Shown one piece after another: positions 19,665 through 46,344 of a stretch of DNA of 64,000 nt. How positions within the stretch are numbered: the stretch's first letter is position 1; every line of letters begins with the position of its first letter. The DNA lies in IMG/VR virus record IMGVR_UViG_2684622848_000004, positions 6,232-70,231 of that record. One strand, written 5' to 3'. Below the pieces are notes generated by a model. That model was not told the origin of the DNA. It searched no databases and worked only from the letters and a program-made list of their open reading frames with translations. The position numbers were made by a program, and so were the translations under genes. Origin of the DNA: a virus.

Positions 19665-20097
19665 CCAGATCCCTTGTGATCTGCGCTGGAAGTGTGGACA
19701 TGGAGGTCAAGAACTCACCAGTCACATCTTCCAGAGCTTCCATGGCCTCATCAATTGTGATCAACTCACGATCTTCACGGGCCATCTTGCGAACCAGAGC
19801 TTGCTCACGGCGCTGCGCCAGCTTGTCGGCACTGTTTGGCGCCAACTTTGAAACTTCGCCCTGCACTTTGAAATCGATGAAGGCCTTCACGTTGAATGTG
19901 AGAGGGAACTTCCCTCGGCCTTCCTTGCGCAGCACACCTTCAGAAACGAGCTGGCCGAGCCTGCGCGGCGTGATATCCAGGAACTTGGCCATCTCACCCG
20001 AGCCGACCATCTCCGGGAGCTTGCTATTTGCAGGCGCTGCGCGCTTGGCGCATGCAATCTTCTTTGCCTTCGCATCCTTAGGTGTCTTAGTTGCCAT
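19531..20097 (-). CDS. terS: Terminase small subunit (Nu1-like)
   Basis: Winged-HTH EMAKFLDITPRRLGQLVSEG..GKFPL followed by coiled coil; upstream of terL. Confidence 0.88.
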   Translation of the reverse strand: MATKTPKDAKAKKIACAKRAAPANSKLPEMVGSGEMAKFLDITPRRLGQLVSEGVLRKEGRGKFPLTFNVKAFIDFKVQGEVSKLAPNSADKLAQRREQALVRKMAREDRELITIDEAMEALEDVTGEFLTSMSTLPAQITRDLDERRRIEKICDGERSRLVGSFLKTTKALQQGSGASEAKSEDDAG

Positions 20098-21232: not shown

Positions 21233-21307
21233 TGATTGCAGGGAGTGGATTTGAACCACTGACCTCAAGGTTATGAGCCTAGCGCGCCCGGACTTCTCTA
21301 CCCTGCT
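21233..21307 (-). tRNA. Degenerate initiator-type tRNA-Met(CAT)-like element
   Basis: AGCAGGG/CCCTGCA acceptor (1:72 mismatch), CTCATAA anticodon loop, perfect AGTGG-TTCAAAT-CCACT T-arm; D-stem broken, ends TCA not CCA. Confidence 0.75.
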
Positions 21308-21999
21308 TAAAATTTCACGAGTTTTGCGATGCGTTTCTCAACCTGCACCCTGAGTTCCTTGGGAGCTTCCTGCTTGAAGGTTATCAAGGCTTGGTCTTTC
21401 TGCATCTCTTTGCCCAATGCAGGGCCAAACAAACGACGCACACGGTAGCCAGCTCTCTGCGATGACTTGAACCGGCCTTTTGTGTCTCTTGGCTGGCTGG
21501 ATTTTTTGCCAAAAGTCCAAAATTCTTTAGGCAGCGCACTGGATGTGCTTCCACCTGGGATCAATGCAAAGAAGCCGCCATTGGAGGAGAACGAGCGCTT
21601 GAATGTTCGTGGAGCATTCCAGACACCGGACTTAACGAAGCCCTGATCATCAACGGAACGACCCGAGTTATACCGCTTTGCTGTGCGCCCCTTAGAGGAA
21701 AGAGCCTTCAGCCCCTTGTAAATCTCGATCTTGCCGCCCTTGTTGTTGGCAACGATCACCCCGGCAAGCTCAGCAGGCTTCGAAAACGCCCGCGTGTTCT
21801 TCACAACGTAGCTTTGATAGTTCCCAGGCTTCAGCGCCATCTGCTTGGCGGCAGCTTTCTGAACCTTGGTTTTTACTTTTTTGGTTGCAGCCATCACCCC
21901 GCGCTGGGCTTCCTGCTTCCATTTCCCATTTGCAAGCAGTTCAGAATGCTTCTTAAAGCTCACTAAGTGCTTGGTTTTCAGCGTAACTTGAACTTTCAT
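21307..21999 (-). CDS. Basic virion-associated protein (lambda gpZ / HK97 gp10-like)
   Basis: K-rich, V..LFGP motif near C-terminus; first late gene; start reassigned to ATG 21999. Confidence 0.65.
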   Translation of the reverse strand: MKVQVTLKTKHLVSFKKHSELLANGKWKQEAQRGVMAATKKVKTKVQKAAAKQMALKPGNYQSYVVKNTRAFSKPAELAGVIVANNKGGKIEIYKGLKALSSKGRTAKRYNSGRSVDDQGFVKSGVWNAPRTFKRSFSSNGGFFALIPGGSTSSALPKEFWTFGKKSSQPRDTKGRFKSSQRAGYRVRRLFGPALGKEMQKDQALITFKQEAPKELRVQVEKRIAKLVKF

Positions 22000-22072
22000 G
22001 GCCAGTTTCCATTCCATACCGTTTTCGGAATCGGAAATCCGAAAAAAAAAATCCAAAAAACGTTCAAATACT

Positions 22073-22115
22073 GCGCTGCGGCTGCCCCGCGGTGGTCCCC
22101 CCTCTGGAAGGAACC
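22073..22115 (-). other. Candidate cos site (cosQ/cosN-like)
   Basis: Minus strand GGTTCCT-N21-GGGCAGCCGCAG parallels lambda GGGTCCT-N23-GGGCGGCGACCT; A/T-tract repeats follow at 22070-22020. Confidence 0.5.
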
Positions 22116-22362
22116 TATGGGGGTGGGGTGAACAAAGGGGGATCAGGTGGCCTATAGGTCACAGAGTGCAGAAATGCCACGTGGCGCGACGGTGACAGTG
22201 TGGTGATCCTGCACTTGGCACGCGGATTGCTACGCGATGCACGCGGGGTTCCTTCTCTGCTTTCCGTGAGGCTAGGTTGATCAATGGGAAACGTTGAGGG
22301 GGCAGTTGCTACCGGGTGCCGGTCCATACCGGGCACCCTGCCCCTCTCAGAGAGCACGCAAC

Positions 22363-22386
22363 AAAAAACCCGCCAACTAGGGCGGG
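22363..22386 (-). terminator. Intrinsic terminator upstream of late operon (tR'-like position)
   Basis: CCCGCC-CTAGTT-GGCGGG-T6. Confidence 0.7.
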
Positions 22387-23021
22387 TAGTCTTTGGGGAG
22401 GCTTACGCAATCTCTCAACGTGGGAATACTTGTGACTCGTTTTTAGCGTTTCGGCAAGTGATTCGCCTACCAAATCCAAATATTTTTGGCCTTTCTTTTG
22501 TTGTTTCTCAATGAGTTATCATTTTAACGGATCAAATTGGTGCTTTTAATGTTGACTATAAGCTCAAAATGATCTTTTATTTAGCCATCGGAACAAACAA
22601 GCCGATTGGCCCAGAAGCCAGCTCATTGACAATAAGCCGATAGGAAATTCCAATTTTTGGAATGTTTGCCAAAACTGAGTTTAACCGCTCCCCTTGGCAG
22701 ATTGCACAAAACACGGATCACAATTTCAAATCGTCGCAATAGGGGAACCTTCGACAACGCACGACAAAGCGTTGCAGGGAACGGGGTTAGCGTGTGACCT
22801 GACTTACAAGCAACACGACGGAATTTTGCAGAAGGACTGCAACACACTCGCAAAGCATGAGTGTGCCAGCCGATTACCTAGGGGCTTTGCTTCTTAGGTT
22901 TTCGTCTAAGGCACTGGATAGGGCGACGGATCAACAATGGGTTCGTTTAAGTGAACGAGTTGGAATTCCTAGACGCCATGCGGAAAACGTGTGGCGTTCG
23001 GTGTTCTAACAGGGGGGTTAC

Positions 23022-23264
23022 ATGTTCTCGATTTCTGAAGTTCAAACCAGCATCAAACAATTTGCATCATCCAACGGGACAATCACACTTAGAGGTGCAA
23101 CGCTAGCGCTTAAGCCTTTTGGATTGTCAGTGCATGCTCGCATCACTGATGGCGCAATGTGCAAAGACTTCTCTGGCTCTCTCATAGCGCAACGTATCAG
23201 CGAAACGCACAACATTTACCGCGCAAGCGATGTCCTTACATTCGCTTCTAAGCAACTCACCTAA
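23022..23264 (+). CDS. Hypothetical protein
   Basis: 80 aa, G-rich RBS, first ORF of plus-strand operon. Confidence 0.5.
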   Translation: MFSISEVQTSIKQFASSNGTITLRGATLALKPFGLSVHARITDGAMCKDFSGSLIAQRISETHNIYRASDVLTFASKQLT

Positions 23265-23342
23265 GCCAATGCCTCTTCACTAGCCGCCAGTCTTGGCGGC
23301 ATTTGTGGAAGTATTGTTTATTCTAACCAAAGGAACCCAATC

Positions 23343-23858
23343 ATGTCTTTCAAAGTTCTTTCCGGTAAAGCTCTCTCACGCGCTATCTCTGGCTACGGCA
23401 AAACAGCTGCGAGCTTTGCGCAGCGCACGCACCAACTCGCATACTGTGCACTCCTGCACGTGGAGGAGCACAATTGTGCCTCTCTCCTTACAAAACTCTA
23501 CGAGTCCTCTCCTACCAATTATCGCACACAAATTCGCGAATATGCATGTGCACTTGGCAAGGTTGCATTCGACACTGACAAGCAGGAGTTTGCCTATTCC
23601 AAGGGCAAGAAGTCCGACATGGAAACCGCGTTGCGTGTATCGCCAGCTGAGTTCCAGCGCGAGATAAAGCAAAGTGCAAGTGCGTCTAAGTCCTTCGCTG
23701 ACCGTCTGTCAGCACTGGTTGAGAAAGAAATGAAGGCGGAAAGTGGTGACCATGCGCTTGCAAAGAAGCTCGCCAACTTCCTCAAAGCGAACGAACCAAA
23801 GTCTGTAATCGCTCCTGCAAATGATCAGGGAGAGGTGCAGCTGGAACTGGCATCCTGA
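23343..23858 (+). CDS. Hypothetical protein resembling podovirus early-region proteins
   Basis: AAGGA RBS; HQLAYCALLHVEEHN..LL..L pattern recalled from T7-like phage early proteins (not verified). Confidence 0.7.
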   Translation: MSFKVLSGKALSRAISGYGKTAASFAQRTHQLAYCALLHVEEHNCASLLTKLYESSPTNYRTQIREYACALGKVAFDTDKQEFAYSKGKKSDMETALRVSPAEFQREIKQSASASKSFADRLSALVEKEMKAESGDHALAKKLANFLKANEPKSVIAPANDQGEVQLELAS

Positions 23859-24036
23859 TAGTCCCCCACACTCCCCCCTTGTATGGGGGTGGTGTGGCTC
23901 CCTGAAAGCACGTGCCAACGCATGCTTTCAAGGTGCCATACCTGCACCTGTATCCCACCCACCAGCCAATTTTCAAAACACCAGAGATTTAGACGGGAGG
24001 AATCTGTCTGCACTCTGGCGTATGGAGGACACGGAC

Positions 24037-24177
24037 ATGCCACGTTATCACAAGCATTTTGAGACTTACGCGCAAGTACAGCGCCGTGAATTCCGTGATG
24101 AAATTGCTGAGTTTGTCGCCAACGCCGCGCTCCAACGCAAGCGCTACCAGTCTCGACGTATCCTGACTGCACGCTGA
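24037..24177 (+). CDS. 46-aa basic hypothetical protein
   Basis: GGAGGA RBS before ATG 24037. Confidence 0.55.
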   Translation: MPRYHKHFETYAQVQRREFRDEIAEFVANAALQRKRYQSRRILTAR

Positions 24178-24178
24178 T

Positions 24179-24265
24179 ATGTCGCGCCACTTCTATTTCT
24201 CAGTAGCCATGCTGGCGCTCTGCATCATGGTGGCTGTCCACTCCCTTTTCATCATTCCAGCCTGA
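24179..24265 (+). CDS. 28-aa single-pass membrane peptide (not in ORF track)
   Basis: MSRHFYFSVAMLALCIMVAVHSLFIIPA; fills the gap between two genes exactly. Confidence 0.45.
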   Translation: MSRHFYFSVAMLALCIMVAVHSLFIIPA

Positions 24266-24275
24266 CGGAGAACGC

Positions 24276-24704
24276 ATGGAACACTCCATTCCAACAATCT
24301 ACTCGCGGCTTGAGCAACACGCCGAGCCAGTTTTGCAGAACTACAAGACTGATCTCACAGAACACGACCGTCTTGAGTGTCGCAGTCTGAAGGCAGGACA
24401 AGGGGGGATCTGGGGTGTTCGCGAAAATGGCACACACTTTGTCGTCTTCCCTCTCCTCTATGGGCTGTCACCAGTGGTACTCGCCGAGCTCCTCAAGAAA
24501 AGCCGCATTACCCTTGAGCACATCAAAGAGATTATGCGTCTTCACCCTAAGGCGCGTTGGTACAACTTCACCTGTGAGACGAACCAACGTGGAAAAGTGC
24601 GCCTAACTACAGCTGAGCACGCACTGTCACGGCTGAATGCGTCACTTGCCTCAATCCAAGCAAGACTTGCAGAGGTAACCAACGCTCAACCCCATTCACA
24701 GTGA
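24276..24704 (+). CDS. Hypothetical protein (mobile-element type)
   Basis: GGAG RBS; DL..HDR......W..R..GTH motif. Confidence 0.75.
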   Translation: MEHSIPTIYSRLEQHAEPVLQNYKTDLTEHDRLECRSLKAGQGGIWGVRENGTHFVVFPLLYGLSPVVLAELLKKSRITLEHIKEIMRLHPKARWYNFTCETNQRGKVRLTTAEHALSRLNASLASIQARLAEVTNAQPHSQ

Positions 24705-24714
24705 GACACTGACA

Positions 24715-24954
24715 ATGGCCCTAGTTTTTGATAGCCTGTCCTACGCAAAAGATTTGGAAGATAAAGGTGTGCCACGCAAGCAAGCAGAGGCACACGCCAA
24801 CGCAGCGCGGGACTACATCATGAAAGATCTTGTCACGAAAGAAGACTTGCGACTGGCGCTGGAGAACCACGCCAATGTTATGACCATTCGCCTTACTGGC
24901 ATTATGGCCGCAATTCTTGGTTCGTTTGCGCTGTTCGATAAGTTCTTTATCTAG
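24715..24954 (+). CDS. DUF1640/CCDC90-like coiled-coil membrane-anchored protein
   Basis: FDSL.YAK.L...G....QAEA, LVTKEDL, C-terminal TM helix. Confidence 0.8.
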   Translation: MALVFDSLSYAKDLEDKGVPRKQAEAHANAARDYIMKDLVTKEDLRLALENHANVMTIRLTGIMAAILGSFALFDKFFI

Positions 24955-24985
24955 CCCTCCCACTCATTCAACAATCCACTTGAAG

Positions 24986-25011
24986 CGCTCCCATCTGGGG
25001 GCGTTTTTTTT
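24986..25011 (+). terminator. Internal intrinsic terminator
   Basis: CGCTCCC-ATCT-GGGGGCG then T8. Confidence 0.7.
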
Positions 25012-25031
25012 ATGCCTGAAAGGATGCATCA

Positions 25032-25697
25032 ATGCCTGTACTCCTCCAGACTACTGCGTATTGCCTCACCGAGCTTCCGAAGAATGTCCAGAGCCGTGTG
25101 CTTGAGCGTTACCGTGCGTTCTATGTGCACGATGACTGGTATCAATCCATCTATGAACACGCGGATCAGGCTGCCCAGCTCTTGGGTATCACGATCAACC
25201 GCAAGCACATCAACACCCAACGCCTTTGCACGACACCCGCAATCTATTTCCAAGGGTTTTGTTCGCAAGGCGACGGGGCTTGCTTTGAGGGGCATTTCTC
25301 CAGCCCAGGCAACAGTTCGCAGATCGTTGCCAACATTGCAGCATTCAGTCCTGAGGATGTGGACTTACTGAACATCGCCAAGCGGATCCAGCACCTTCTA
25401 GTGCACACAGATGACCAGTTGACTGCCACCCTCACCCACAATGGGTCTCGTTACTCTCATCCTTCCACTATCTGCGTAGATGCAGAGCTGGTTTCTGAGA
25501 GTGATGAGACCATTGAAGCAATCACTCCCCCTCAAGGCATTGAAACAGAGCTCACTGAAGCTCTGCGCCATTTCATGGGCTGGATCTATCGCAAGCTTGA
25601 GCGGGAGTTTGAGTACCTGACCAGTGATGCTCAGATCGCTGAGGCGCTCAATAGCAATAGCTTCCTCTTCACAGAATTTGGCGAACCAGCTGCCTAA
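25032..25697 (+). CDS. Conserved mobile-element protein (family commonly labelled antitoxin-like)
   Basis: IYFQGFCSQGDGACFEG motif; IYRKLEREFEYLTSD C-terminus. Confidence 0.75.
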   Translation: MPVLLQTTAYCLTELPKNVQSRVLERYRAFYVHDDWYQSIYEHADQAAQLLGITINRKHINTQRLCTTPAIYFQGFCSQGDGACFEGHFSSPGNSSQIVANIAAFSPEDVDLLNIAKRIQHLLVHTDDQLTATLTHNGSRYSHPSTICVDAELVSESDETIEAITPPQGIETELTEALRHFMGWIYRKLEREFEYLTSDAQIAEALNSNSFLFTEFGEPAA

Positions 25698-25741
25698 TTC
25701 TCTCCCTTTCCCGAACCACACTTTCACAAGGACGAGTAGCC

Positions 25742-26644
25742 ATGAACGCTATTACCGATATTCCATCCGTATCCAACACCCTCGCCAGCCGCGCTATGCT
25801 GATTTCATTGTCAATCAGCAACTGGTCCGGTCGCAAACTGGACCGCAAGGTAACAGAAGAGGTCAATACCTCTCGCGGTGCTGCATCCGATGCCGGTCGC
25901 TACAACAAGCAGTTGCTTCCCAAAGAAGCGCTTGATGCAATCCATAAGAAAGCAGGTGCAATCCGCAACGAGTTCTATGCTCGTACCCTCCCATGGATGG
26001 ACGACGGTCAGCGCATTATGGCGGCCAATGCGTTTCTTGCACACTCCCAGTGGTTCGCAAACCAGCGCACAGGTTATGACAAGCTGGTTGAGGACTTCCT
26101 GAAGGAATATCCAGATTTCGTTGAGCAGGCCAAGTTGAACCTGAAGGACATGTTCAACGCTACAGACTACCCACCTGTTGATGTTCTGCGCCAGAAATTT
26201 GGGATTGAGATCACCGTCCTCAATGTACCCAACTCCGAGGACTTCCGTGTCTCCATCAGTGAAGCACAGGCAGACCAGATCCGCACCCAGATTGAGGCTA
26301 AAGTCACAGAGGCCTCACAGAATGCGGTGAAGGATGTTTACCGGCGTATCACCGAATCCCTGACCCGTATGGTGGAGCGGCTGAACAACTACAAGCCAGG
26401 TAACCGCGTTGAGCGAGCGCAAGGTGTGTTCAGGAACAGTCTTGTCGAAAACATTCGTGACCTGATTGAGGTCATGCCTGCTCTCAACATCACCGGAGAT
26501 CCAGAGTTAGACCGGCTGGCAGAGCGTTTGAAAGACGTGACCATCTATGACGCAAATGTCCTGAAAACCAATGCAAATAAGCGGAAAGACACAGCTCAGG
26601 AAGCCCAGGCGATCCTCGATAGCATGTCTGCATTCGTGGCGTAA
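25742..26644 (+). CDS. DUF3150-like protein
   Basis: LISLSISNWSGRK, RTLPW, YPP..L..KF, LNITGDP motifs; neighbour of AAA/vWA pair. Confidence 0.7.
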   Translation: MNAITDIPSVSNTLASRAMLISLSISNWSGRKLDRKVTEEVNTSRGAASDAGRYNKQLLPKEALDAIHKKAGAIRNEFYARTLPWMDDGQRIMAANAFLAHSQWFANQRTGYDKLVEDFLKEYPDFVEQAKLNLKDMFNATDYPPVDVLRQKFGIEITVLNVPNSEDFRVSISEAQADQIRTQIEAKVTEASQNAVKDVYRRITESLTRMVERLNNYKPGNRVERAQGVFRNSLVENIRDLIEVMPALNITGDPELDRLAERLKDVTIYDANVLKTNANKRKDTAQEAQAILDSMSAFVA

Positions 26645-26692
26645 GACCCAACAGGCGGCCTACCGCCACCTCTCTCTTTCTTGGTAAATTCA

Positions 26693-27190
26693 ATGTCTGA
26701 CAATGTTCGAAATTTTCTCGACCTTTCAACGGGTCATCTCCTTCCGTCAACACGAGATCTTCTCGACGGAGAATTGCTCTCCATCAGAATGTTTCAGCAT
26801 GAGTATGGATGGCTCCTACCAACCCTAAGCGAAGACCATCCAGATCTTGGCGCTATTCCATCCGACTTATTGGCATGCATTGCGCTGGCTCGGAAACGCT
26901 CTTGTGACTACATCTTGTTTGATAGAGATGCTTCTCCTGATGACGACCTGATCTATTACGACGACAATCATATTGGCACCGTGCAGGTTCAGGTCTCAGA
27001 GATCGTGGAATACCACTTCGATATGCCGGTCACTCAAGAGCAATTGGACCTCATCCAAAATGATCCCAATGCACTGGATGAACCCGCAGAGAGCTTCTTT
27101 ACCGAGGTTGGAGCCAAGCCAGAGTGGGTGACATCTGTCCATAATCGCACAGTCGATATGATCGACGCGGACGACGCCACCCAGTCCTGA
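26693..27190 (+). CDS. DUF5983-like protein with acidic C-terminal extension
   Basis: FLDLSTGHL, YGWL, P.DL...AR...CDYILFDRDA motifs. Confidence 0.7.
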   Translation: MSDNVRNFLDLSTGHLLPSTRDLLDGELLSIRMFQHEYGWLLPTLSEDHPDLGAIPSDLLACIALARKRSCDYILFDRDASPDDDLIYYDDNHIGTVQVQVSEIVEYHFDMPVTQEQLDLIQNDPNALDEPAESFFTEVGAKPEWVTSVHNRTVDMIDADDATQS

Positions 27191-27230
27191 ACTTCCTTTT
27201 CACGATTACCAATTTCCTGGAGAACACAGC

Positions 27231-28217
27231 ATGACCGCCGTAACCATTTCACGCGCATCCACATTGCTCGAACACTACATTGCCAAGGATATTCCTGCCT
27301 TTCTTTGGGGCGACGTTGGGATTGGCAAGTCAGACAGTGTTGCTGCTGTCGCCAAGAAACAAGGCGCCGAGCTGCTGGACATTCGCCTTTCCATGTTTGA
27401 TCCGGTGGACTTGCGCGGCCTACCCACAATCCAGAACGGTGAAACCGTTTGGCTAAAGCCAGCAATCTGGCCAAAGGACGACAACACTCCCAAGTTTCTC
27501 TTCTTTGATGAGTTCGACCGTGCTTTGCCGTCCGTACAGAACGCTGCCCTTCAGATCGTTCTGAACCGGCGCATTGGTGAACATAAGCTGCCTGATAACG
27601 TGCGTATCATTGCCGCTGGCAATGGCAACACTGACCGTGTTGGAACGCAGCGCACGTCAGCCGCTGGTGATAACCGTTTCGCTCACATCTATGCGGAAGC
27701 AGATCTACCATCATGGCAACGTTGGGCGGCTTCAGCTGGCGTGCACCCACTCATCATCGCCTTCGTGTCATTCCGGCCTGAACTTCTTCACAAGCGCGGA
27801 GGAAAGAACGAGAAGACCTTCCCCACTCCCCGCACATGGGAAGCCGTCAATGACTTCGCGGATGCACCTGATGATATCCGGATGGATTTGGTAACGGGTT
27901 TGATTGGAGAAGGAGCAGCAGCTGAGTTTGAAGGCTTTGTGGGGGTGTTCAAGAACCTGCCTTCGCTTGATGCGGTCATTACAGACCCAACTGGATCACC
28001 AGTTCCCTCAAAACCAAACACCCGCTACGCAATCAGCGCTGGTCTTGCAGTGAAAGCAGACATGAACAACATCCAGAACATCATCACGTACCTGGCACGC
28101 CTGCCTCAAGAATTCTCAGTCCTTGGCGTGATGAATGCGTCTCGCCGTGATCCATCAATCACCCACACTCCAGCCTTTATCCAATGGTCGTGTGAAAATC
28201 AGGATGTGACCTTATGA
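27231..28217 (+). CDS. MoxR-like AAA+ ATPase
   Basis: GDVGIGKS Walker A, LFFDEFDRA Walker B, AAGN sensor, NRF, FPTPRTWE. Confidence 0.93.
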   Translation: MTAVTISRASTLLEHYIAKDIPAFLWGDVGIGKSDSVAAVAKKQGAELLDIRLSMFDPVDLRGLPTIQNGETVWLKPAIWPKDDNTPKFLFFDEFDRALPSVQNAALQIVLNRRIGEHKLPDNVRIIAAGNGNTDRVGTQRTSAAGDNRFAHIYAEADLPSWQRWAASAGVHPLIIAFVSFRPELLHKRGGKNEKTFPTPRTWEAVNDFADAPDDIRMDLVTGLIGEGAAAEFEGFVGVFKNLPSLDAVITDPTGSPVPSKPNTRYAISAGLAVKADMNNIQNIITYLARLPQEFSVLGVMNASRRDPSITHTPAFIQWSCENQDVTL

Positions 28218-29389
28218 GTGCATTTGATGCCATCACCAAGGCTCGATCGAAACTTGTTTTGCAACAGCCGTTCTTCGGCTGCATGGCCTTGTTCCTCACT
28301 CCTGAAGAGGAAGAAGGTCTAGAAACCATGGCGACAGACGGGAGCAAGCTGTTCTACGATCCTGTCTGGCCAACAACCTTGAGTGAGCAAGAGCTAATGG
28401 GCGCCCTCGCTCATGAAGTCATGCATGTAGCTCTTGAGCACACCATCCGCCGCGGTCAACGAGATCCACAACATTGGAATGAAGCTTGTGACTATGCGAT
28501 CAACGCCGAGCTCATTGAAGCAGGGTTTCAGCTCCCAAAAGATGGCTTCTATCGCAAAGAGTTCGCAGGCCTCACGGCTGAAAGTATTTACAGCCAGCTC
28601 GCAGATGAACGGGAGCAAAACAAGGACCAGCACAACAATGATCAGGGTCAGGGGGATAGCCCTGCAAAAGACCCCGGGGGCTGTGGTGCGGTCCGTGATG
28701 CCACTCAGGCACACGACAAGGCCGGGATGGAAGCCACTCGTGCAGACATCCAAGCCAAGGTGAGACAAGCTGCAATGCTGGCGCGTAAGGCTGCCGGTGG
28801 TGATCTGGGAGAAGGTGTTGAGCGTCTGATCAAGGAGATCACTCAGTCACGGATCAATTGGCGCGATGTGTTGCACCAGTTTATCAACGACCGAGTTGAG
28901 CAAGATTACTCTTGGCAGCGCCCCAACCGGCGCTACCTGCAGCATGGGCTGATCATTCCCGATCTGGTGGCTGATGGGATATCGCACGTGGTCATTGCAA
29001 TCGATACCTCCGGCTCGATTAACCAGCGTGCACTTGAGGCCTTCACCTCGGAAGTTTCCGAGGCGTGCGAAAATGGCGCGCTTTCACGGCTCACCATTGT
29101 TCATGCAGATACCTGTGTCCGCAAAGTGGATGTGTTTGAAGGTGGTGATACTGTCAGCATCAAGCCCAAGGGAGGTGGTGGTACAGCGTTTGCCAAGACC
29201 TTCGAGTGGATCGAGGACAATGCAACAGATGCAGCTGCTGTAATCTACTTCACCGACCTGGAGGTGAGGAGCTTTGGCGAAGAGCCCCACTGCCCCGCTC
29301 TCTGGGCTGTCTGGGGTGATGAGCGCAGGTTCGAACAACTCTCGCAAGCCACTCCGTTCGGAGAAGCAATCTATCTAGCCGCTCATTAG
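28214..29389 (+). CDS. vWA-like domain / putative metallopeptidase (DUF2201)
   Basis: TMATDG, AHEVMHVALEH (HExxH), WN.ACDYAIN, DTSGS MIDAS, GGGGT.F, YFTDL. Confidence 0.92.
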   Translation: MSAFDAITKARSKLVLQQPFFGCMALFLTPEEEEGLETMATDGSKLFYDPVWPTTLSEQELMGALAHEVMHVALEHTIRRGQRDPQHWNEACDYAINAELIEAGFQLPKDGFYRKEFAGLTAESIYSQLADEREQNKDQHNNDQGQGDSPAKDPGGCGAVRDATQAHDKAGMEATRADIQAKVRQAAMLARKAAGGDLGEGVERLIKEITQSRINWRDVLHQFINDRVEQDYSWQRPNRRYLQHGLIIPDLVADGISHVVIAIDTSGSINQRALEAFTSEVSEACENGALSRLTIVHADTCVRKVDVFEGGDTVSIKPKGGGGTAFAKTFEWIEDNATDAAAVIYFTDLEVRSFGEEPHCPALWAVWGDERRFEQLSQATPFGEAIYLAAH

Positions 29390-29468
29390 CGGCCAGTCCA
29401 ACTAACCTTCATTCATTGCGTAAATCAATTTTGAGCTGACCGGTCGCAGATCGGGAAGGAGTACAATC

Positions 29469-30911
29469 ATGACCAAACACACTGCAATCGTACCGGCAGC
29501 CTCCTTGGAGAAGATGTGTGAGGAGCGGGATCTCGCTTTGGAGGTACAGCGACAGGCGGAGGTGCATTCAGCACAAGCAAACACATTATTCAGAAACGCC
29601 AGAATTCGTGCAAACGGTATGACACGAGGTTTCTTCACGCAAGAGTTTGGAGCACCAGTCAATGAAGAACAGTGCATCAATGACGGTGTTGAAAGCTTCC
29701 GACAGGAGATTGACCGAGCTGCGTGGCGTTACCTTCGGCACCTGATCAGGTTTGATGAGATACTCGACAAGACCGCAAAAGAAGAGTTCGAAGATGGCCT
29801 GAAGGAGGATGTTCCAGAGTTTACAGCAGGCAATGTTCAGGCAACGGTTGCAGACTTTCTGATGAACTCCAAACTGATCTTTCAACGCGGTTTGGCGCGC
29901 TGCTTCAGTGAGTTAGACCGCCGCTTCAAATCACATGATGGCTTCAAGGTTGGCTCCCGTATAATCTTAGACAAAGTATTTGATGATTGGGGGCATTGGA
30001 ACCACTACAGAAATCACAAAGATACCTTCCACGACATTGAGCGTGTCTTCAATAAGTTGGATGAAGGTAACACGACGTACATCCCAGAGGGTGAAGAACC
30101 TCCAAAACATCGTTCTCTTGTCGATGTAATCGATGATGATCGAAAAGTGAACCGCACTGCACTTTCTGCCTATCGCTCTACGGTCGAGTCCGAGTACTTC
30201 AAGATTCAAGTGTTTCTGAATGGCAACGCCCATGTGTGGTTCAAGCGGAAAGATCTGGTTGAGAAAGCCAACAAGCATCTTGCCGAATTCTACGGTGAGG
30301 TGATTGGAGACGCTGCAACCAAAGACACCAATCCAGATGATCTGAGAAGCAAGTCAGGACTACCAGCCAAGAACTTATCATTCTATGCAACACCAGAACC
30401 GGTCGTGCGTAAGCTGATCGATATGGATGTTAGGGATTGTATCAAGGGCAAGCTTGTACTGGAGCCAAGTGCGGGGAACGGAGCAATCGTCGCCAAGTGT
30501 CTGGAACTGGGCGCCACAGTTAAGGCAATTGAAATCCATCCAGATCGAGCCCATATGCTCCGCCGGTTTCAGACCTGCAGGCTGGAGGTCGGGGAAACGA
30601 ACTTCCTCAATGCAAAGCCTCGTCCGGTCTACGACTACGTGTTGATGAACCCACCGTTCTCCGGAGCACATTGGATGGAACACGTCATACACGCCTATGA
30701 CTTTCTAAAGCCGGGGGGCGTCCTGCGTGCTGTTTTACCAGCAAGTGCTGAACTGAACGACACCAAAAAGCATCGCACATTCAGAAAATGGGCAGAGCAA
30801 CGTAAGCCACGGTACGGCAGGCTCTGGGAAAGCCTCCCTCCTGAGAGCTTTGCATCGACCGGCACGCGGATCAACACTGTCATCATCGAACTTTACAAAC
30901 CTCACTCCTAA
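29469..30911 (+). CDS. DUF4942-fused class I SAM-dependent amino-DNA methyltransferase
   Basis: RRFKSHDGFK.G.RII N-domain, LEPSAGNG motif I, MNPPF motif IV. Confidence 0.88.
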   Translation: MTKHTAIVPAASLEKMCEERDLALEVQRQAEVHSAQANTLFRNARIRANGMTRGFFTQEFGAPVNEEQCINDGVESFRQEIDRAAWRYLRHLIRFDEILDKTAKEEFEDGLKEDVPEFTAGNVQATVADFLMNSKLIFQRGLARCFSELDRRFKSHDGFKVGSRIILDKVFDDWGHWNHYRNHKDTFHDIERVFNKLDEGNTTYIPEGEEPPKHRSLVDVIDDDRKVNRTALSAYRSTVESEYFKIQVFLNGNAHVWFKRKDLVEKANKHLAEFYGEVIGDAATKDTNPDDLRSKSGLPAKNLSFYATPEPVVRKLIDMDVRDCIKGKLVLEPSAGNGAIVAKCLELGATVKAIEIHPDRAHMLRRFQTCRLEVGETNFLNAKPRPVYDYVLMNPPFSGAHWMEHVIHAYDFLKPGGVLRAVLPASAELNDTKKHRTFRKWAEQRKPRYGRLWESLPPESFASTGTRINTVIIELYKPHS

Positions 30912-30921
30912 GGACACCTCC

Positions 30922-31455
30922 ATGAATTTCTCAGAGTGCTCCATTGCCGGAGCGGTCAAGGATCTCGTGCGCCTCGGTTTCGTCATTGCGGATCAGAAAT
31001 GCTCCGAAGATGGTGACGCCAGCTGCACGGTCTCCGGCCTCCTGCCCTTCGTCCACGTCCGCTGCTCTGGCAAGGTAGTATCAACTGAGACTGCACTGAA
31101 CGAGGGTTCTCATGGGCCTCTTTACCTGGCACCTGCAAGCAACTTCAAGGCAGAGATACTCGCGATTTTGGAAATGCAGGCCTTGGAATTGTCGCGGCCC
31201 TTTCGAAAAGAAATGGCAGCTTCTCTTCCCTCTGAAACGCTTCTTGAGATCGATCGCCTGAACAGCACACCCGAATACGAAGGGTGCTGTGCTTCTCACG
31301 ACTTTATCGACGCCAACATGGTCATGGACGCTGCGCTACGCAAACGCGGTGAAAGATTCCAAACCAATCACGACAACTACGAGACAACTGCCCTTCGGAA
31401 CCGTGCGTGGTCAGTTACTCGCGAACAAGGATTTGCCAATGAAACTTCCTCCTGA
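30922..31455 (+). CDS. Hypothetical protein
   Basis: AAGGA RBS; CASHDF.DANM.M..A..N.AW motif of a mobile-element family. Confidence 0.7.
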   Translation: MNFSECSIAGAVKDLVRLGFVIADQKCSEDGDASCTVSGLLPFVHVRCSGKVVSTETALNEGSHGPLYLAPASNFKAEILAILEMQALELSRPFRKEMAASLPSETLLEIDRLNSTPEYEGCCASHDFIDANMVMDAALRKRGERFQTNHDNYETTALRNRAWSVTREQGFANETSS

Positions 31456-32026
31456 GTTTGATATCCGCCCGGTCATTGAAGTTGGCAAGGACTGCCAGTC
31501 TTTTTCCTCTGAAGAAAGCTACAAGTCTGCTCTGAAGGATTTGCTGGAAGATGAGAAGTCCCCCTCATTCAGCACCTTCTGGACGGTATATCTACTGGAT
31601 GACGTTGGATGCAGTAGCGCCGTTGCCGACCGTTCCTCCAAGCAGTCTGCATTGTTGCTGGTGGCCTCCCTTGCGAGCCTCAAGACAGAACCAAATCGCA
31701 GTCTCGCAATCAATGCCGCATGTGTTTGGGAAGCCATTGTTGACGGCTCCTGTGAGAACAATGCTCTCTGGGAAGGTTGGCGCAGTGACCTTGGTTCATG
31801 CGAAATGCGTGATCAGGTTTACGACCTCGCGGTTTGGGTGCAACAGGTCTACGACGAGTGCATCAAGCAGGATGCGGAAACCACACAAGGACATCCTTTC
31901 GATTGGGATTTTGTCCCTGCAGCACTCGGCTTCATCAAATGCCCCAGTGAAGACAAATACCCCGGTCCGGATGACTATCCTAAGCCGGATGAGATAGCCC
32001 CTCAGGTACTCGCCAAACTCTCGTAA
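31439..32026 (+). CDS. Hypothetical protein
   Basis: ATG 31439 overlapping upstream gene; followed by terminator. Confidence 0.65.
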   Translation: MKLPPEFDIRPVIEVGKDCQSFSSEESYKSALKDLLEDEKSPSFSTFWTVYLLDDVGCSSAVADRSSKQSALLLVASLASLKTEPNRSLAINAACVWEAIVDGSCENNALWEGWRSDLGSCEMRDQVYDLAVWVQQVYDECIKQDAETTQGHPFDWDFVPAALGFIKCPSEDKYPGPDDYPKPDEIAPQVLAKLS

Positions 32027-32048
32027 CCGCCACACGGCGGTTTTTTGT
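32026..32048 (+). terminator. Intrinsic terminator
   Basis: ACCGCC-ACAC-GGCGGT then T-run. Confidence 0.75.
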
Positions 32049-32089
32049 GTCTCAATTTCATTTAACGTCATTGTTTAGAGGACTAACCC

Positions 32090-33229
32090 ATGTCTGCATT
32101 GCCACAAGCCACCATCGCTGCAACCGATTTCTCCGCCGCTATCAAGAACTGCTATAACGTCGCTGCACGTCGCTCAACAATCTCTGTATTAACCGGAGTG
32201 GTGATCTCAGGAAATGATAACGGCGAGCTCTCATTCACGACCACTGATCTAGATCAACTGAACACCTCCACAGTGAGAACAACCGGCGATACCATTCCCG
32301 TTGATTTCACCGCACTGGTGAGTGTTGAGAAGATCAAAAAAGTGCTCGACAAGTCAAAGACTGGCACACAGGTCGAGCTCACATCAAACAATGATAACCT
32401 TGAGCTGAAATGTGGTTCACTCAGTCTCACCTTTCCGATGATTGCAGACATCTCTGAGTTCCCGGACACATACCTGACAGAGGATGCACAAGTGAAGGCA
32501 TTTGAGCTTTCTCGCTCGGAACTCAAAGACATCTTCACCAAGACGCTCATGTCAGTCTCAACCGAGGCCACGCGCTACTACCTGGGAGGTGTCTACATGC
32601 ACACTGTTGAAGGGAACACGCTGATCTTCACGTCCACCGATGGCCACCGAATGACAAAATACGAAACACGCCATCAGATAGAAGGCCTGCCAGATGTCAT
32701 CATCCCAGCACTGGCTGTTAAAGAGATGCTACGTCGCCTGAAAGACAAGAGCTGTCCTGAGACCGTTACAATTGAAGTAAGCGACAGACAGGTCAACCTG
32801 GTTTCAGGTCACGATAAGCTCAGAACAAAGGTGGTTGATGGTACCTTTCCCGACTACCAGCGCATCATTCCAGAGCTATCTCGGGACAGTCATGTCACCT
32901 TGAAGATGGACGCAAAGAAAGCCATTGAAGCGATTGGAAGCGTAACATGCGTAGCAGACAAAAAAGGTCATGCAATCAAGATCTATCAGGAAGACGATAG
33001 CTACTGGATCTCATGCAGTGCACAAGGCGGCACAGCAAAACACAAACTCGAAGCAACCGGTGAGCAACTTGATTTTGCGATTGGATTTAACAATTCCTAC
33101 GTCACGGACATTCTCAAAGATGTTGGCTCTGAAGCACAGATCCATCTCTCAAACTCTGACAATCCAGCAGTGATCCAGCCGGTCGATACCTACGGCCTGA
33201 CCTACGTTCTCATGCCGATGAGACCCTGA
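32090..33229 (+). CDS. dnaN: DNA polymerase III beta sliding clamp homolog (phage-borne)
   Basis: 379 aa; TTTDLD, STEATRYYLGGVY, STDGHRM, VDGTFPDYQRII, IGFN..YV.D.L, YVLMPMR. Confidence 0.95.
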   Translation: MSALPQATIAATDFSAAIKNCYNVAARRSTISVLTGVVISGNDNGELSFTTTDLDQLNTSTVRTTGDTIPVDFTALVSVEKIKKVLDKSKTGTQVELTSNNDNLELKCGSLSLTFPMIADISEFPDTYLTEDAQVKAFELSRSELKDIFTKTLMSVSTEATRYYLGGVYMHTVEGNTLIFTSTDGHRMTKYETRHQIEGLPDVIIPALAVKEMLRRLKDKSCPETVTIEVSDRQVNLVSGHDKLRTKVVDGTFPDYQRIIPELSRDSHVTLKMDAKKAIEAIGSVTCVADKKGHAIKIYQEDDSYWISCSAQGGTAKHKLEATGEQLDFAIGFNNSYVTDILKDVGSEAQIHLSNSDNPAVIQPVDTYGLTYVLMPMRP

Positions 33230-33238
33230 TATTCTAAC

Positions 33239-33266
33239 AAAAGAGCTCCTTAATGGAGCTCTCTTT
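33239..33266. terminator. Bidirectional terminator between convergent genes
   Basis: AGAGCTCC-TTAAT-GGAGCTCT with A/T flanks. Confidence 0.7.
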
Positions 33267-33631
33267 CAGAAGTCAAACCTGACATCCTTCAGCTCTGGTC
33301 GCTGCCCGACCTCCACGACCTCTGCCTCTATATCAAACTGGCAGCGCGGGTTTTCTTTCACGCAATTGTCCAACATCAAGCGAACGAGAGGCATTTGGTC
33401 GTTTGAAAAGTTTGCTATTAGCGTCGTCAGAAACTGGCCGTTGTAAAACACCCTACAACTCATGCCGTACACGCCATTGGCGACCCACATACAGCTGGTC
33501 AACTGGACCCGCTGCCCTACCAAGGATTGCTCACCAAATACCAAGTCTTGGGCGGTGATCCGAGGGGCTGCCTGAGCCGACTGCACAGCGCTCAAAAACA
33601 AAGAGCAAACAATAAAGAATACACGCATCAA
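33266..33631 (-). CDS. Secreted small protein (signal peptide, 4 Cys)
   Basis: MMRVFFIVCSLFLSAVQSAQA signal peptide; GGGAG RBS. Confidence 0.75.
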   Translation of the reverse strand: MMRVFFIVCSLFLSAVQSAQAAPRITAQDLVFGEQSLVGQRVQLTSCMWVANGVYGMSCRVFYNGQFLTTLIANFSNDQMPLVRLMLDNCVKENPRCQFDIEAEVVEVGQRPELKDVRFDF

Positions 33632-33762
33632 TCAATCTCCCACCAACAACAGATAGTCAACATCGCTTGCCCCTTGGCTGTCAACATCATCATATGAGGA
33701 AATTTATGGTTGCAATCACGACGCCTAAAAGCTTTAAAGTCGCCACAGGCAAAGGTGGTGAC

Positions 33763-34038
33763 ATGGTTAAAGAACAGACTGACTTTGAGATCTGGATGCA
33801 AGCCCATGGCTTTCACGGAAAACAGGTTTCAGCAGCCGGGGAAGCAATTGGGTTTGCCAGCGCGACATCCAAGCGAGCAAAAGCCGGTACGAAAACCCTT
33901 TCCAAGACCGACCGTCTTGCAATGGCTGCTGTGAGAGCCGGAATACCTGAGTGGACACCGGAAACAGATGAAGAGATACACGCCCTTGGTGTGTTGCGTC
34001 AGGCTCTTGCCGCGTCTTCACAGTCCTCCGGCGACTGA
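33763..34038 (+). CDS. Small HTH-like protein
   Basis: GGTGG RBS; WMQAHGFHGKQV..AG..IG..LSKTDRLAMAAVRAG. Confidence 0.65.
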   Translation: MVKEQTDFEIWMQAHGFHGKQVSAAGEAIGFASATSKRAKAGTKTLSKTDRLAMAAVRAGIPEWTPETDEEIHALGVLRQALAASSQSSGD

Positions 34039-34308: not shown

Positions 34309-35421
34309 TTAGTACTCGCCATTGGTCTTGCAGAAGATTTCTTGCCGGTGGAAAGCAAGGAACTTTCTTTGCGCAGAAGACGGCCTTTTTCTCAAGGCGC
34401 TTCCTAACTGTAAGAGATTCCGCTCGGACTCCGTGAGTGAAGCGGATATGAGCATCTCCCCAGTATCAGAAAAAGAGATTAGGCCGCGATCAAATAGGGC
34501 GTCAAAATTTGCTGTTAGCAGAAGGCCGTTTTCTACGTCCAATCGTTCCTCGTTGGTCGATGATCGCCAGGGCTTGATATGTGAAGCTCTTAAAACTTCG
34601 CGCCTTTGACAGTCGGTTACGGCACAGCCATTTTGCCAATAACCATCTAATTTGCTGCGAAAGTTTCCCTGCCCAACACGTGCCAGTTGAAGTTGTTGTC
34701 TATCCGTATTGGAGATCAATTTGTCATTAGCAATTGCGTAAACGTCTTGTTCTAGTGAACTCGTTAATCCACCAACAAGCTCGTCAATTTTTTTCCACGC
34801 AGGTTTTCTTTGATCAAATGGAATTTGATGAAGAATTGATTTTGCGACCTCTTCAGGAATTACTGTATGACTTGTAAATCGCGGAATAAGACGACTCTTA
34901 CCGGTGATGTTTGGAGCTGACAAAGTAACGGGTTCAGAAAGCCACAAAAAGTGATCTTCAGGACAGTGCCAGTTTGGAATCCAAGTTTCGCCCTTTTTAA
35001 AAGATTTATTGAACTCGGTTTCGTTGTTTTTGTATTTCTCTCTTACAAGAGGCTCCGCCCATGCTTGCTGCCGCATTGCTCTGAAATCGAAGTTTCCCGT
35101 AATCTTACGTCGTTCTCGCTCTTCTAACCTATGTGTTGCAGACCCCGCGACCCCAACCAAGTCTTGTCTTCCATCGTGACATGCATACATGAAGACCACT
35201 GTGTTCCCCAAATTCTCTAAGGATGTTGCCGCTTCAATACCTTCTGTGTGAAATGCTCTTTGAGGAATGTTGTCGAGAGAAAACCGCATGAGATCGGAGT
35301 TATTCCATTCTTCATGCCCATACCCTTCTTCAAACGGAAAGCCCGAACCAGCCTTGTGCCCGCTTGGTTCCTTATAGTCTTTTGAGTTCCAAAATATTGG
35401 TTTTAAAATATAGAGAGACAT
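34309..35421 (-). CDS. HNH endonuclease with unknown N-terminal domain (putative restriction/defence)
   Basis: CAVT..LRASHIKPW..D..NGLLL..FDALFDRGLISF; AT-richer than neighbours. Confidence 0.88.
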   Translation of the reverse strand: MSLYILKPIFWNSKDYKEPSGHKAGSGFPFEEGYGHEEWNNSDLMRFSLDNIPQRAFHTEGIEAATSLENLGNTVVFMYACHDGRQDLVGVAGSATHRLEERERRKITGNFDFRAMRQQAWAEPLVREKYKNNETEFNKSFKKGETWIPNWHCPEDHFLWLSEPVTLSAPNITGKSRLIPRFTSHTVIPEEVAKSILHQIPFDQRKPAWKKIDELVGGLTSSLEQDVYAIANDKLISNTDRQQLQLARVGQGNFRSKLDGYWQNGCAVTDCQRREVLRASHIKPWRSSTNEERLDVENGLLLTANFDALFDRGLISFSDTGEMLISASLTESERNLLQLGSALRKRPSSAQRKFLAFHRQEIFCKTNGEY

Positions 35422-35779
35422 TTTTTGTTCTGCCTAAATGAGATTCATAATTGTTAAAATGAAATCAACTGCTAGCACTCGCTATGCCAATATGCGGACG
35501 AAGTGGACCTTCGTTGCACTGCGTGAACTGAGGTAAGAGAGAGGCCGTTGCCTGCACGCAGGGCACACTGCGGACATTCGGGTGGTCCGATCAAAGGTTG
35601 AGCCAGTCGTTGCGGATGAGACGACGCTCTCGTTCTGGAGAACTCGTCTCGGCATATGATCGTGTGACTGCCGGATATGAAATGGGGTCATTGTGCGGAC
35701 AGTCAATATGACAAACTAGGCCTCCGCTCAACGCACATAATGGTAGATTGAAGATGGCTTTACGTTCGCGATAGTTACA

Positions 35780-37168
35780 TCATCCCTGATAGGGCCATCC
35801 CGTCAATTCAAGTCTATTGAGGAATTCACCATACAGATGCGATACTGCAAGGTCTGTATGATCGTGCGGAGCCCAATCTACAAAGTTTTCGTTATTGTAG
35901 AGCTCAGTTTCTAACAAACGGGCTTCGTCAATTTCCCCTTTTCTTTTCAATACGCGAATCTTACGCAATGGATTGGCATGCAGTTTTCTCTTAAACTCCA
36001 AGTTCGGATGTAGTTGCGTGTCCTTTGTCCCAAATGTCCGGTTTGTATCAGTAGGTCCACCAAGATAATCAACAGCACGTATGTCTGCAGCTACAAGTGA
36101 AATTCCGTATATATTCGCAAGGTTCAATGTTGCTGCATCTGCAAATGCCGGAACCACAGATCCAGTAGGCGGGATTGGTCGGTTCAGAATTGCATGATCG
36201 AAGCTCGTGCCTCGCAGTTCAGCACGAAAGAAGTCTGCATAATTTAGTAGAGAGCCACTTAGCAGAGAACCTTTAAGCTGGCTCTCTCGAAAGTTAGCCG
36301 CTTCCAGTCGACTGCGAATAAAAATTGCGGCTGAAAATTCGCCCTTGTTAAAGTTAACACCGGACAAATCTGTTTTTCTCAAATCCAATCTAAATTCCTG
36401 GCCCCACTCAAGTTGTATTTGCTGTTCGGAACGCCGCCCAATGACACTGATGGCAGCCTGAATATCAGTTCGGGGAATAGCAAATTTAAACGGTGGCTCG
36501 CTTGGTTCTAGAGAAGTAACTGGTGCATTTTCTCTAACGTAGGCACAAAGTATTTCCATGATCTGTATGTGATCACGAAGGCTATCTTGTGCAATACGCT
36601 CCAAAGCATAAATTGCCCCAATTCGAACTTCCAAATTGGGGACACTTTGTTCGTACGTTTCGCGGTCTACAATCGATGTTCCGTCAGGATGCACAGCTGG
36701 CATTGGATTTCCGTCTTCACCCACCTGCCATTTGTCATCCACACTCTTATATCGAGGTGTTTCTATTATTTCTCTTACGGTCTTTTCAGTACCGAGTCCC
36801 TCAACAGCCTTATTAATTCGGTCTGTAATCTGACTTTGCAGTGCAACATCTGCATTCTGCTGGGCTACTATAGACCGCCAAACCAGGAATGGGGCAGCAA
36901 ATGTGGCAGCTAAAACAAGACCAATGTTTCTAATAGCTCCCCCAGTAGGGTCACCTGCATACGGGCCAAGACCAATGAATGCGAGGCAAAGCAGTACTAG
37001 CCCAACAAGGCTAATTAAAAAAACCATAATCATTGCAGCGAACAGAACTGCTCCAATAGAGCTACCCAACCAACGGACGCTTGAAAAGTCAGGGTTCTTC
37101 TTGAGATGAATCCAGTCCCAGAAAGTCAGCTTTTCGCTTTTCATGGAATATTCTTTCCAGCAATACAA
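35780..37168 (-). CDS. Membrane-anchored pentapeptide-repeat protein
   Basis: Two N-terminal TM helices, ITDRINKAVEGLG, EVRIGAIYALERIAQDS, A(D/N)Lxx repeats. Confidence 0.88.
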   Translation of the reverse strand: MYCWKEYSMKSEKLTFWDWIHLKKNPDFSSVRWLGSSIGAVLFAAMIMVFLISLVGLVLLCLAFIGLGPYAGDPTGGAIRNIGLVLAATFAAPFLVWRSIVAQQNADVALQSQITDRINKAVEGLGTEKTVREIIETPRYKSVDDKWQVGEDGNPMPAVHPDGTSIVDRETYEQSVPNLEVRIGAIYALERIAQDSLRDHIQIMEILCAYVRENAPVTSLEPSEPPFKFAIPRTDIQAAISVIGRRSEQQIQLEWGQEFRLDLRKTDLSGVNFNKGEFSAAIFIRSRLEAANFRESQLKGSLLSGSLLNYADFFRAELRGTSFDHAILNRPIPPTGSVVPAFADAATLNLANIYGISLVAADIRAVDYLGGPTDTNRTFGTKDTQLHPNLEFKRKLHANPLRKIRVLKRKGEIDEARLLETELYNNENFVDWAPHDHTDLAVSHLYGEFLNRLELTGWPYQG

Positions 37169-46320: not shown

Positions 46321-46344
46321 GCCGCCAACTAGGGCGGCTTTTTT
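46321..46344 (+). terminator. Intrinsic terminator after cI
   Basis: GCCGCC-AACTAG-GGCGGC-T6. Confidence 0.8.

Follow-up and report, generated by a model that had tools for sequence, protein, structure and literature searches.

Can a temperate phage with cohesive ends carry, at the end that enters the host first, an operon of early-acting genes like the leading regions of lytic phages and plasmids? The question is raised by IMG/VR virus record IMGVR_UViG_2684622848_000004, of which we analyzed 64,000 nucleotides (nt) (positions 6,232 to 70,231 of the record; this whole stretch is called the window, and its first letter is position 1). The window is part of a temperate prophage of about 67 kb, whose closest terminase relatives, in a scan with the large terminase subunit (TerL) that kept one genome per species, are Pseudovibrio prophages. 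Close to a cos-like site it carries a divergent block of plus-strand genes, which the original prediction took for a possible first-injected region with anti-defense and host-takeover functions in a lambdoid phage. Our analysis makes it highly probable that the block is an integral, conserved operon of a clade of temperate alphaproteobacterial phages and lies at the last-packaged side of cos. These comparisons support the leading-region interpretation in its geometric half, and the functional half remains a proposal; as the best explanation of the whole we favor an integral cos-side operon with a role in early establishment or host takeover, to which we give slightly less than an even chance.

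A candidate cos site beside the divergent block

The features relevant to packaging are as follows.

22063-22117, minus strand: candidate cosN region, a 55-nt noncoding motif
22020-22062, minus strand: putative cosB-like stretch, rich in A/T and in repeats of CGGAAT/CGGAAA, separating cosN from the first late gene
21307-22056, minus strand: first late gene (open reading frame, ORF), encoding a basic protein of about 232 to 249 amino acids (aa), the marker of the clade
19531-20097, minus strand: small terminase subunit (TerS), phrog_57 match (1.4e-12)
17643-19664, minus strand: TerL of the GpA type, Pfam GpA_ATPase (6.8e-44) and GpA_nuclease (3.9e-50)
22056 down to 1 and beyond, minus strand: late operon (ORF listing)
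about 22552-33229, plus strand: divergent block (ORF listing)
45904-33266, minus strand: replication operon, containing MT-A70 and C5 methyltransferases, primase, DnaB, a pentapeptide protein and an HNH protein

On the late strand, the candidate cosN region reads TAGGTTCCTTC, a variable G/C-rich stretch, CCGCGGGG, GCAGCGCAG and TATTTGAA. The form found in the clade is AGGTTCTTC, a variable G/C-rich stretch of about 16 to 18 nt, CCGCGGG, about 6 nt, GCAGCGCAG, NN and TTTGA. This motif was present in 11 of the 14 clade loci when a simple regular expression was used and in 10 IMG/VR loci in a pattern scan, and a homologue of the first late gene followed directly after it in every locus with enough downstream flank, except L116. 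The motif region shared 73% identity over 93 nt with that of the IMG/VR provirus G061, the proteins of the phages being only 35 to 56% identical. Its CCGCGGG flank resembles the left end of lambda (GGGCGGCGACCT/CGCGGG) and the end that is duplicated in the VP882 record (GGGCGGCAAA/CCCGCGGG). Furthermore, the 8066-bp contig L012 (the same as L134, IMGVR_UViG_2510917026_000001) stops inside the motif and starts, in late-gene orientation, with GGGTCGGCGGCAGCGCAG; at this contig end, the intact provirus G062 reads ...GACCGC/GGGTCGGCGG.... The contig ends as if assembly had stopped at a physical DNA end. The source contig of the window prophage runs unbroken across the motif and is uninformative on ends, and a metagenome scan with a cos submotif gave three hits, all of them internal and too few for a contig-end pile-up test. 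As the first late gene abuts TerS without a gap in L042 and L043, there is no room for cos between these two genes. The assignment of cos to 22063-22117, as read from the sequence, is supported by three independent lines, i.e., the conserved motif, its likeness to lambda and VP882, and the contig end.

The stretch at 22020-22062 was nearly invariant among three Pseudovibrio prophages and is presumably cosB-like, lying on the terminase side of cosN as it does in lambda. Three sequence hallmarks of lambda-type packaging, a GpA-type TerL with ATPase and nuclease domains, TerS just upstream of it and a conserved cosN-like site, were present. Three contigs from metagenome-assembled genomes that are more distant TerL relatives (L054, L088 and L113) begin 8 to 40 nt upstream of TerS; these starts fit cos ends right before TerS in lineages without the extra first late gene.

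Seen from cos, the block is on the side opposite the terminase genes, and it reads inward from a control region about 0.45 kb away. Under the lambda rule, by which packaging proceeds from cosN toward the terminase genes, the block end would therefore be packaged last and, on a reading that is contested (see below), ejected first.

Conservation of the block across relatives

The TerL scan yielded 80 loci, on which tblastn was run. Two IMG/VR proviruses, G061 and G062 (60% GC; TerL 56% identical), are syntenic with the window prophage over the whole genome and carry blocks of 15 to 17 kb, encoded on the other strand from their replication and late operons. A divergent block was found upstream of the basic first late gene in all 13 loci with at least 5 kb of flank, i.e., L034 and L035 (Pseudovibrio), L036 and L041 (Roseibium), L037 (Devosia), L038 (Hoeflea), L042 (Pseudochrobactrum), L043 and L096 (Brucella), L044 (Ancylobacter), G061, G062 and L123. 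The usual gene order in these blocks is the phrog_1448 gene first, followed by DUF3150, AAA and vWA genes, and phrog_1448 homologues were found in 11 clade loci. A comparison of gene content among related prophages, which had been suggested as a check, thus returned the same slot and the same orientation throughout. Homologues of the first late gene strictly co-occurred with the divergent block. Neither this marker gene nor the block was present in about 43 TerL relatives that are more distant and have full flank, with the exception of one lone divergent clamp gene; the genes upstream of TerS in these relatives were for the most part co-oriented. The median upstream opposite-strand fraction was 0.23 in distant relatives versus 0.71 in the clade, a rough contrast only, as this crude strand-bias statistic scored the true clade member L038 as co-oriented. 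The lone clamp gene (L097:4460-5704) belongs to a different lineage (TerL 44% identity), in which it lies about 4.3 kb upstream of TerS and on the opposite strand, and divergent cos-side modules may have arisen more than once.

The genome plan otherwise resembles that of lambda and of the Hapunavirus phages VP882 and phiHAP-1, with a GpA-type TerL (37 to 39% identical to those of VP882 and phiHAP-1), TerS, a cos site flanked by CGCGGG and a gene order of integrase, recombination, immunity, replication and then cos, head and tail. In the annotated relatives VP882 and phiHAP-1 the order is Q, lysis, cos and TerS, with Q and lysis genes co-oriented with the late genes, whereas in the window prophage the slot before cos is filled by an 11-kb operon on the opposite strand. 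The late operon runs from the basic protein through a tRNA-Met gene, small genes, TerS, TerL, and portal and head genes to the tail genes. Left of the window, genes for P2-type gpU and gpD are followed by a phage lysozyme gene with two small genes (L033:14382-15449, at a distance of 20 kb from the window) and then by host genes; since these lysozyme and small genes close the late operon, the lysis cassette is at the distal end and not in the lambda slot. In contrast to lambda and the Hapunavirus phages, therefore, lysis genes come last in the late operon and an additional basic-protein gene stands between cos and TerS. The statement that the block occupies the slot of PR' and lysis genes in lambda was correct as to position, but the lysis genes have not merely been displaced from it. 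Likewise, the label lambdoid fits the terminase and head genes but not the P2-like tail genes gpU and gpD; the phage is a combination of a lambda/Hapunavirus-like terminase and head with a P2-like tail.

The constancy of the slot also bears on the possibility that the block is a separate mobile element (a satellite, an integrative island or a transposon) nested in the prophage. DUF5983 and DUF4942 occur as in enterobacterial islands, and the DUF3150/AAA/vWA trio of the block occurs on conjugative plasmids. However, family searches found no integrase, relaxase or transposase among the block ORFs (22.3 to 34.4 kb), and att-like or flanking direct or inverted repeats around the block were short and did not exceed chance. 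Slot and orientation were identical in the 13 related prophages, which represent several genera; block GC content (0.49 to 0.535) equals that of the remainder of the phage; and block proteins were conserved as much as TerL among the Pseudovibrio prophages. The lack of att-like repeats, the phage-like GC content and the TerL-like conservation bring the separate-element explanation close to exclusion, and we regard it as highly improbable; att sites of its own, which would have spoken against the original prediction, did not turn up. Position and orientation of the block were constant across relatives, and two terminators within it (T1 and T2) as well as a late-strand terminator next to it were also conserved. 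No near-identical DNA for the block was found by megablast in phage records or Escherichia coli genomes. With the DUF4942 protein as a genome probe, only weak methyltransferase-domain matches were obtained and a scan of genome contigs found no relatives, and in a viral scan this protein had one match (34% identical).

Control region, gene content and possible roles of the block

Between cos and the block genes are the following elements.

22368-22387, minus strand: intrinsic terminator, between the A/T-rich control region and cos
22440-22580: A/T-rich divergent control region
22581-23021, plus strand: 5' leader, long and conserved, containing TTGACA (22626), the palindrome ATTCCAATTTTTGGAAT (22647-22663) and a small ORF (22857-23009)

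In a three-way footprint of the window, L034 and L035, the control region shows a conserved late-strand TAAAAT (within 22516-27) and, on the plus strand, TTGACT (22552-57), N17 and TTTTAT (22575-80); a promoter scan gave promoter-like matches on the minus strand. The TTGACT hexamer is 0.44 kb from the cos-like motif. L034 and L035 retain TTGACT-N17-TTTTAT (22552-22580) and the TTGACA at 22626 in part, and both elements fall short of the threshold of the scan. In the same three-way alignment the leader was more conserved at the nucleotide level than the neighboring ORFs, and no Rfam family was detected in 21900-23500. The late-strand terminator is kept in L034 (7581-7602) and L035 (7484-7504) with loop changes and may be a tR'-like element. 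A link of the block to the CI switch could not be shown: the repressor-operator pattern TTGRC-N5-GYCAA was not enriched, with only a one-mismatch, chance-level site near the block, and the perfect palindrome of the leader is unique within the window, with no second copy in the immunity region.

The ORF listing supports 15 co-oriented plus-strand genes (22857-33229) with tight spacing and, for most, sequences resembling ribosome-binding sites, flanked on both sides by minus-strand operons. This bears out the prediction of 15 or more such genes, as do the family searches, which found all of the named domains; the predicted start about 0.9 kb from the cos-like site corresponds to the distance from the motif to the ORF at 23022 (0.9 kb), and that to the first small ORF is 0.74 kb. 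The features of the block are listed below.

22857-23009, plus strand: small ORF within the leader
23022-23264, plus strand: 80-aa protein, conserved in L034 (70%) and L035 (63%), no family match
23343-23858, plus strand: 171-aa protein of the phrog_1448 family (PHROG E 1.3e-12), the first clade-wide conserved block gene
23821-24177, plus strand: small gene, C-terminal part of about 70 aa conserved in L034 and L035; true start probably at 24022 or 24037
24276-24704, plus strand: 142-aa protein with a weak phrog_18883 match, 90% identity in L034
24715-24954, plus strand: 79-aa protein of phrog_17872, with a coiled coil and, at the C terminus, a hydrophobic helix, conserved in L034-L036, L041, L042 and G062
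24982-25007, plus strand: intrinsic terminator T1 (11-bp stem and T-run), conserved in L034 and L035
25032-25697, plus strand: 221-aa protein, phrog_5162, a family auto-named 'antitoxin of toxin-antitoxin stability system'
25742-26644, plus strand: DUF3150-like protein (Pfam 16.8 bits, under the 24.9 cutoff; clear homologues are annotated DUF3150)
26681-27190, plus strand: DUF5983 (YeeW C-terminal domain) protein, Pfam E 8.9e-21
27231-28217, plus strand: MoxR/CobS-like AAA+ ATPase (AAA_5/AAA, phrog_1297, N4 gp24 type), Walker A GDVGIGKS and Walker B FLFFDE intact
28214-29389, plus strand: zincin-like and vWA protein (DUF2201_N and DUF2201, phrog_1314, N4 gp25 type), HEVMH and the MIDAS motif DTSGS intact
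29469-30911, plus strand: DUF4942 and S-adenosylmethionine-dependent methyltransferase (Pfam) without a nuclease partner, motif I EPSAGNG and motif IV NPPF intact
30922-31455, plus strand: protein of about 177 aa, phrog_21393, start probably at 30922
31439-32026, plus strand: protein of about 195 aa, conserved in L034 (72%) and L035 (46%); this is the conserved gene, and ORF 31551-31997 is spurious
32025-32042, plus strand: intrinsic terminator T2, matching hairpins in L034 and L035
32090-33229, plus strand: phage beta sliding clamp, DnaN family (Pfam and NCBIfam), also in the blocks of G061, G062 and L034
33667-34038, plus strand: 123-aa protein, a homologue of which is the last block gene in G061 and G062

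The phage clamp shares 31% identity with host DnaN and is therefore not a recent host capture. The gene at 33667-34038 is cut off from the block here by a minus-strand gene (33266-33631).

In lytic phages, first-entering DNA contains homologues of two block families. The phrog_1448 protein matched Andromeda gp02 by hhalign (97.9% probability, E 4e-13, 130 columns); in this T7-like Pseudomonas phage, gp02 is encoded by the second gene counted from the left end, and three annotated sigma70 promoters precede it. Homologues of phrog_1448 in cultured phages were found in seven records, and both of those inspected are T7-like; in T7, the left end is the host-transcribed, first-entering region. The AlphaFold model of the phrog_1448 protein (pLDDT 72.7) gave nothing in a Foldseek search of the PDB at E<=0.001, unnamed proteins only in AFDB and at most Z 5.5 in a VIA-wide search. 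A winged-helix fold was considered on account of scattered regulators among the weak Foldseek rows, which were too little to call it. In Caulobacter jumbo phages and Klebsiella phage Muenster, homologues of phrog_5162 fall within the annotated terminal repeats, and homologues are also present on 96 plasmids; in the single plasmid context inspected, the homologue was beside toxin-antitoxin genes and not demonstrably in a leading region.

The DUF3150/AAA/vWA trio, with clear matches to the N4 gp24 and gp25 families, occurs in an early-looking region of phage Pra-JY27 with many small ORFs, in the left portion of the N4 genome and on 60 plasmids, of which 29 are conjugative, with the three-gene set on Burkholderia and Rhodovastum plasmids. 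In the window prophage the order of the trio differs, DUF3150 coming first and the DUF5983 gene being inserted, and the trio is not universal in clade blocks (absent in L034). The claim that the content of the block resembles leading and early regions was thus upheld for the two families in first-entering phage DNA and for the presence of the trio and the antitoxin-like family on conjugative plasmids, but the plasmid copies inspected were not shown to be in leading regions. Three records (OQ594354.1, OL906435.1 and PP438419.1), all of 65014 bp and with identical protein matches, are filed under Synechococcus, Planktothrix and Planktothricoides hosts.

The class I region of T7 (with Ocr), the first-step-transfer DNA of T5 (in its terminal repeat) and the early region of Andromeda share with the block an expected first-entering end, inward reading and many small uncharacterized proteins, the counterpart of their promoters being, in the block, candidate promoters within a few hundred bases of the end, in addition to the families phrog_1448 (Andromeda gp02) and phrog_5162 (jumbo phage terminal repeats). 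Unlike these phages, the window phage is temperate and has cohesive ends and a contractile tail, and Ocr, ArdA and proven counter-defense genes were not found in the block. We know of no slow, stepwise or transcription-driven entry in temperate cohesive-end phages with contractile tails. Likeness to the leading regions of conjugative plasmids (PMC11541004) is in the idea of co-oriented establishment genes on first-entering DNA; Samuel et al. (2024, PMC11541004) report antitoxin-type genes and methyltransferases without a partner to be enriched in such regions, and the block has one partnerless methyltransferase and one family named as an antitoxin. Unlike plasmid leading regions, the element is a tailed prophage that has no oriT, relaxase, single-strand entry or Frpo-type single-strand promoters, and no relaxase or transfer genes were found among the scanned window ORFs.

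The following scheme would account for these features. Host RNA polymerase would start at the cos-proximal promoter (TTGACT at 22552 or TTGACA at 22626) soon after entry, and again on induction, and would cross the long structured leader and then three tiers of genes separated by T1 and T2. The first tier would supply the small proteins and the phrog_1448 protein, the second the antitoxin-like protein, the DUF3150/AAA+/zincin-vWA trio, the DUF5983 protein and the partnerless methyltransferase, and the third the beta clamp. The methyltransferase might protect the DNA against restriction by self-methylation, the antitoxin-like protein might neutralize toxin-type defenses, the AAA+/zincin-vWA/DUF3150 set might remodel or proteolyze a host factor, and the clamp might recruit the host replicase. 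The order of entry, promoter activity, timing and every biochemical role of the block are predictions here. That the block is a clade-wide leading-end operon, a double-stranded equivalent in temperate phages of the T7 early region and of plasmid leading regions, is possible but doubtful; its promoter would enter within the first 0.5 kb or so, host polymerase would read inward while the DNA is being ejected or shortly afterward, and establishment or counter-defense proteins (the phrog_1448 and antitoxin-like proteins, the AAA+/vWA/DUF3150 set, the methyltransferase and the clamp) would be delivered before the lysis-lysogeny decision.

Several observations weigh against a first-injected, counter-defense block. 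Ejection of the last-packaged end of lambda first had been cited as established, which is open to challenge, as lambda was reported to eject either end at about 50% in vitro (PMC10287942). Apart from methyltransferase similarity, no characterized anti-defense or defense family was found in the block with Pfam, PADLOC and NCBIfam, the only other PADLOC match being a weak one to an AAA protein (DolB, E 3.9e-4); family searches of the block proteins gave no match to ArdA, KlcA, PsiB, SSB or Acr families, and no characterized anti-defense family was recognized in the blocks of G061 and G062 either. The geometry of the leading-region proposal (the evidence for cos, a block beyond it and inward reading) is supported, and its anti-defense part did not find a characterized family to rest on. 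The beta clamp points to replication over counter-defense, and the fast ejection of a contractile tail would leave little head start. Promoter-like matches in the control region were no commoner than in shuffles. The trio genes of N4 presumably lie among replication-time genes and not among the first early genes. Finally, block content is mosaic (L034 is without the trio, and L035 is without the methyltransferase and clamp), so that no single function is tied to the position. The G061 block has an additional glycosyltransferase gene, and Pfam searches with the other extra block genes of G061 and G062 gave nothing.

Some of these observations fit an operon that acts in DNA metabolism and modification and is expressed as a delayed-early or middle one, for which proximity to cos would reflect a divergent control region common with the late operon and the order of entry would be irrelevant; an early block product might then control the adjacent late promoter. 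The beta clamp and the methyltransferase would suit such an operon, as would the position of gp24 and gp25 in the left part of the N4 genome, presumably with replication-time genes, the conserved divergent A/T-rich control region with its adjoining late-strand terminator, and the internal terminators, which suggest staged read-through. However, homologues of two block families occur specifically in DNA that enters first in lytic phages, the window phage already possesses a complete replication operon as well as two further methyltransferases outside the block, and no DNA-binding fold could be assigned to its first conserved protein (phrog_1448). We hold this explanation to be tentative and rather unlikely.

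The mosaic content would also fit a lysogenic-conversion or defense island that is expressed from the prophage and protects or alters the lysogen, like the accessory loci found near cos in P2-like phages. Conflict systems include AAA+/vWA pairs, and variable cargo next to cos is known in P2-like phages. The low-GC HNH and pentapeptide neighbors of the block (34309-37168) are moron-like, and variable gene content close to cosL has been noted (PMC5694545). On the other hand, the methyltransferase similarity and the weak AAA match were the only PADLOC results, core block genes are kept across genera with phage-like GC content, unlike hotspot cargo, and the families are typically those of lytic phages, for which there is no lysogen to protect. 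We consider a conversion island distinctly unlikely.

The leading-region principle is so far represented by T7, T5, N4 and, recently, conjugative plasmids, and under the favored reading of a cos-side operon for early establishment, the block would be a temperate, cos-phage variant of the early regions of these phages and the leading regions of plasmids. If expression does begin with this operon at the entering end, the principle would hold for temperate cos phages as well, and position would provide a handle on the function of the trio, phrog_1448, phrog_5162, DUF5983 and the DUF4942-methyltransferases, which are very widespread but uncharacterized phage and plasmid families. Regardless of this, the analysis defines a clade of alphaproteobacterial prophages (including those of Brucella, Roseibium and Pseudovibrio) with a recognizable cos motif and an unusual genome plan, both of which help in prophage annotation and the prediction of ends.

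Further features of the prophage

The remaining features of the prophage are as follows.

21236-21307: tRNA-Met gene (CAT anticodon), within the late operon directly after the first late gene
about 46-48 kb: immunity region (family searches and ORFs)
60499-61668, plus strand: tyrosine integrase gene, in which the recombination operon ends

The tRNA-Met gene has no counterpart at the same place in G061 and G062, where the first late gene lies 117 bp before TerS. At the junction of prophage and host, host rlpA-like, PBP5 and tmk genes adjoin the lysis cassette (L033:14382-15449). The HNH and pentapeptide-repeat genes at the end of the replication operon (34309-37168) have a GC content of about 0.46, lower than elsewhere in the prophage; they lack counterparts in G061 and G062 and are probably recently acquired cargo. 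The intrinsic terminators at 22368-22387 (minus strand) and 46322-46345 (plus strand) have an identical 16-nt core, CCGCCAACTAGGGCGG; the latter comes after the CI-like repressor gene, and the former is just upstream of cos.

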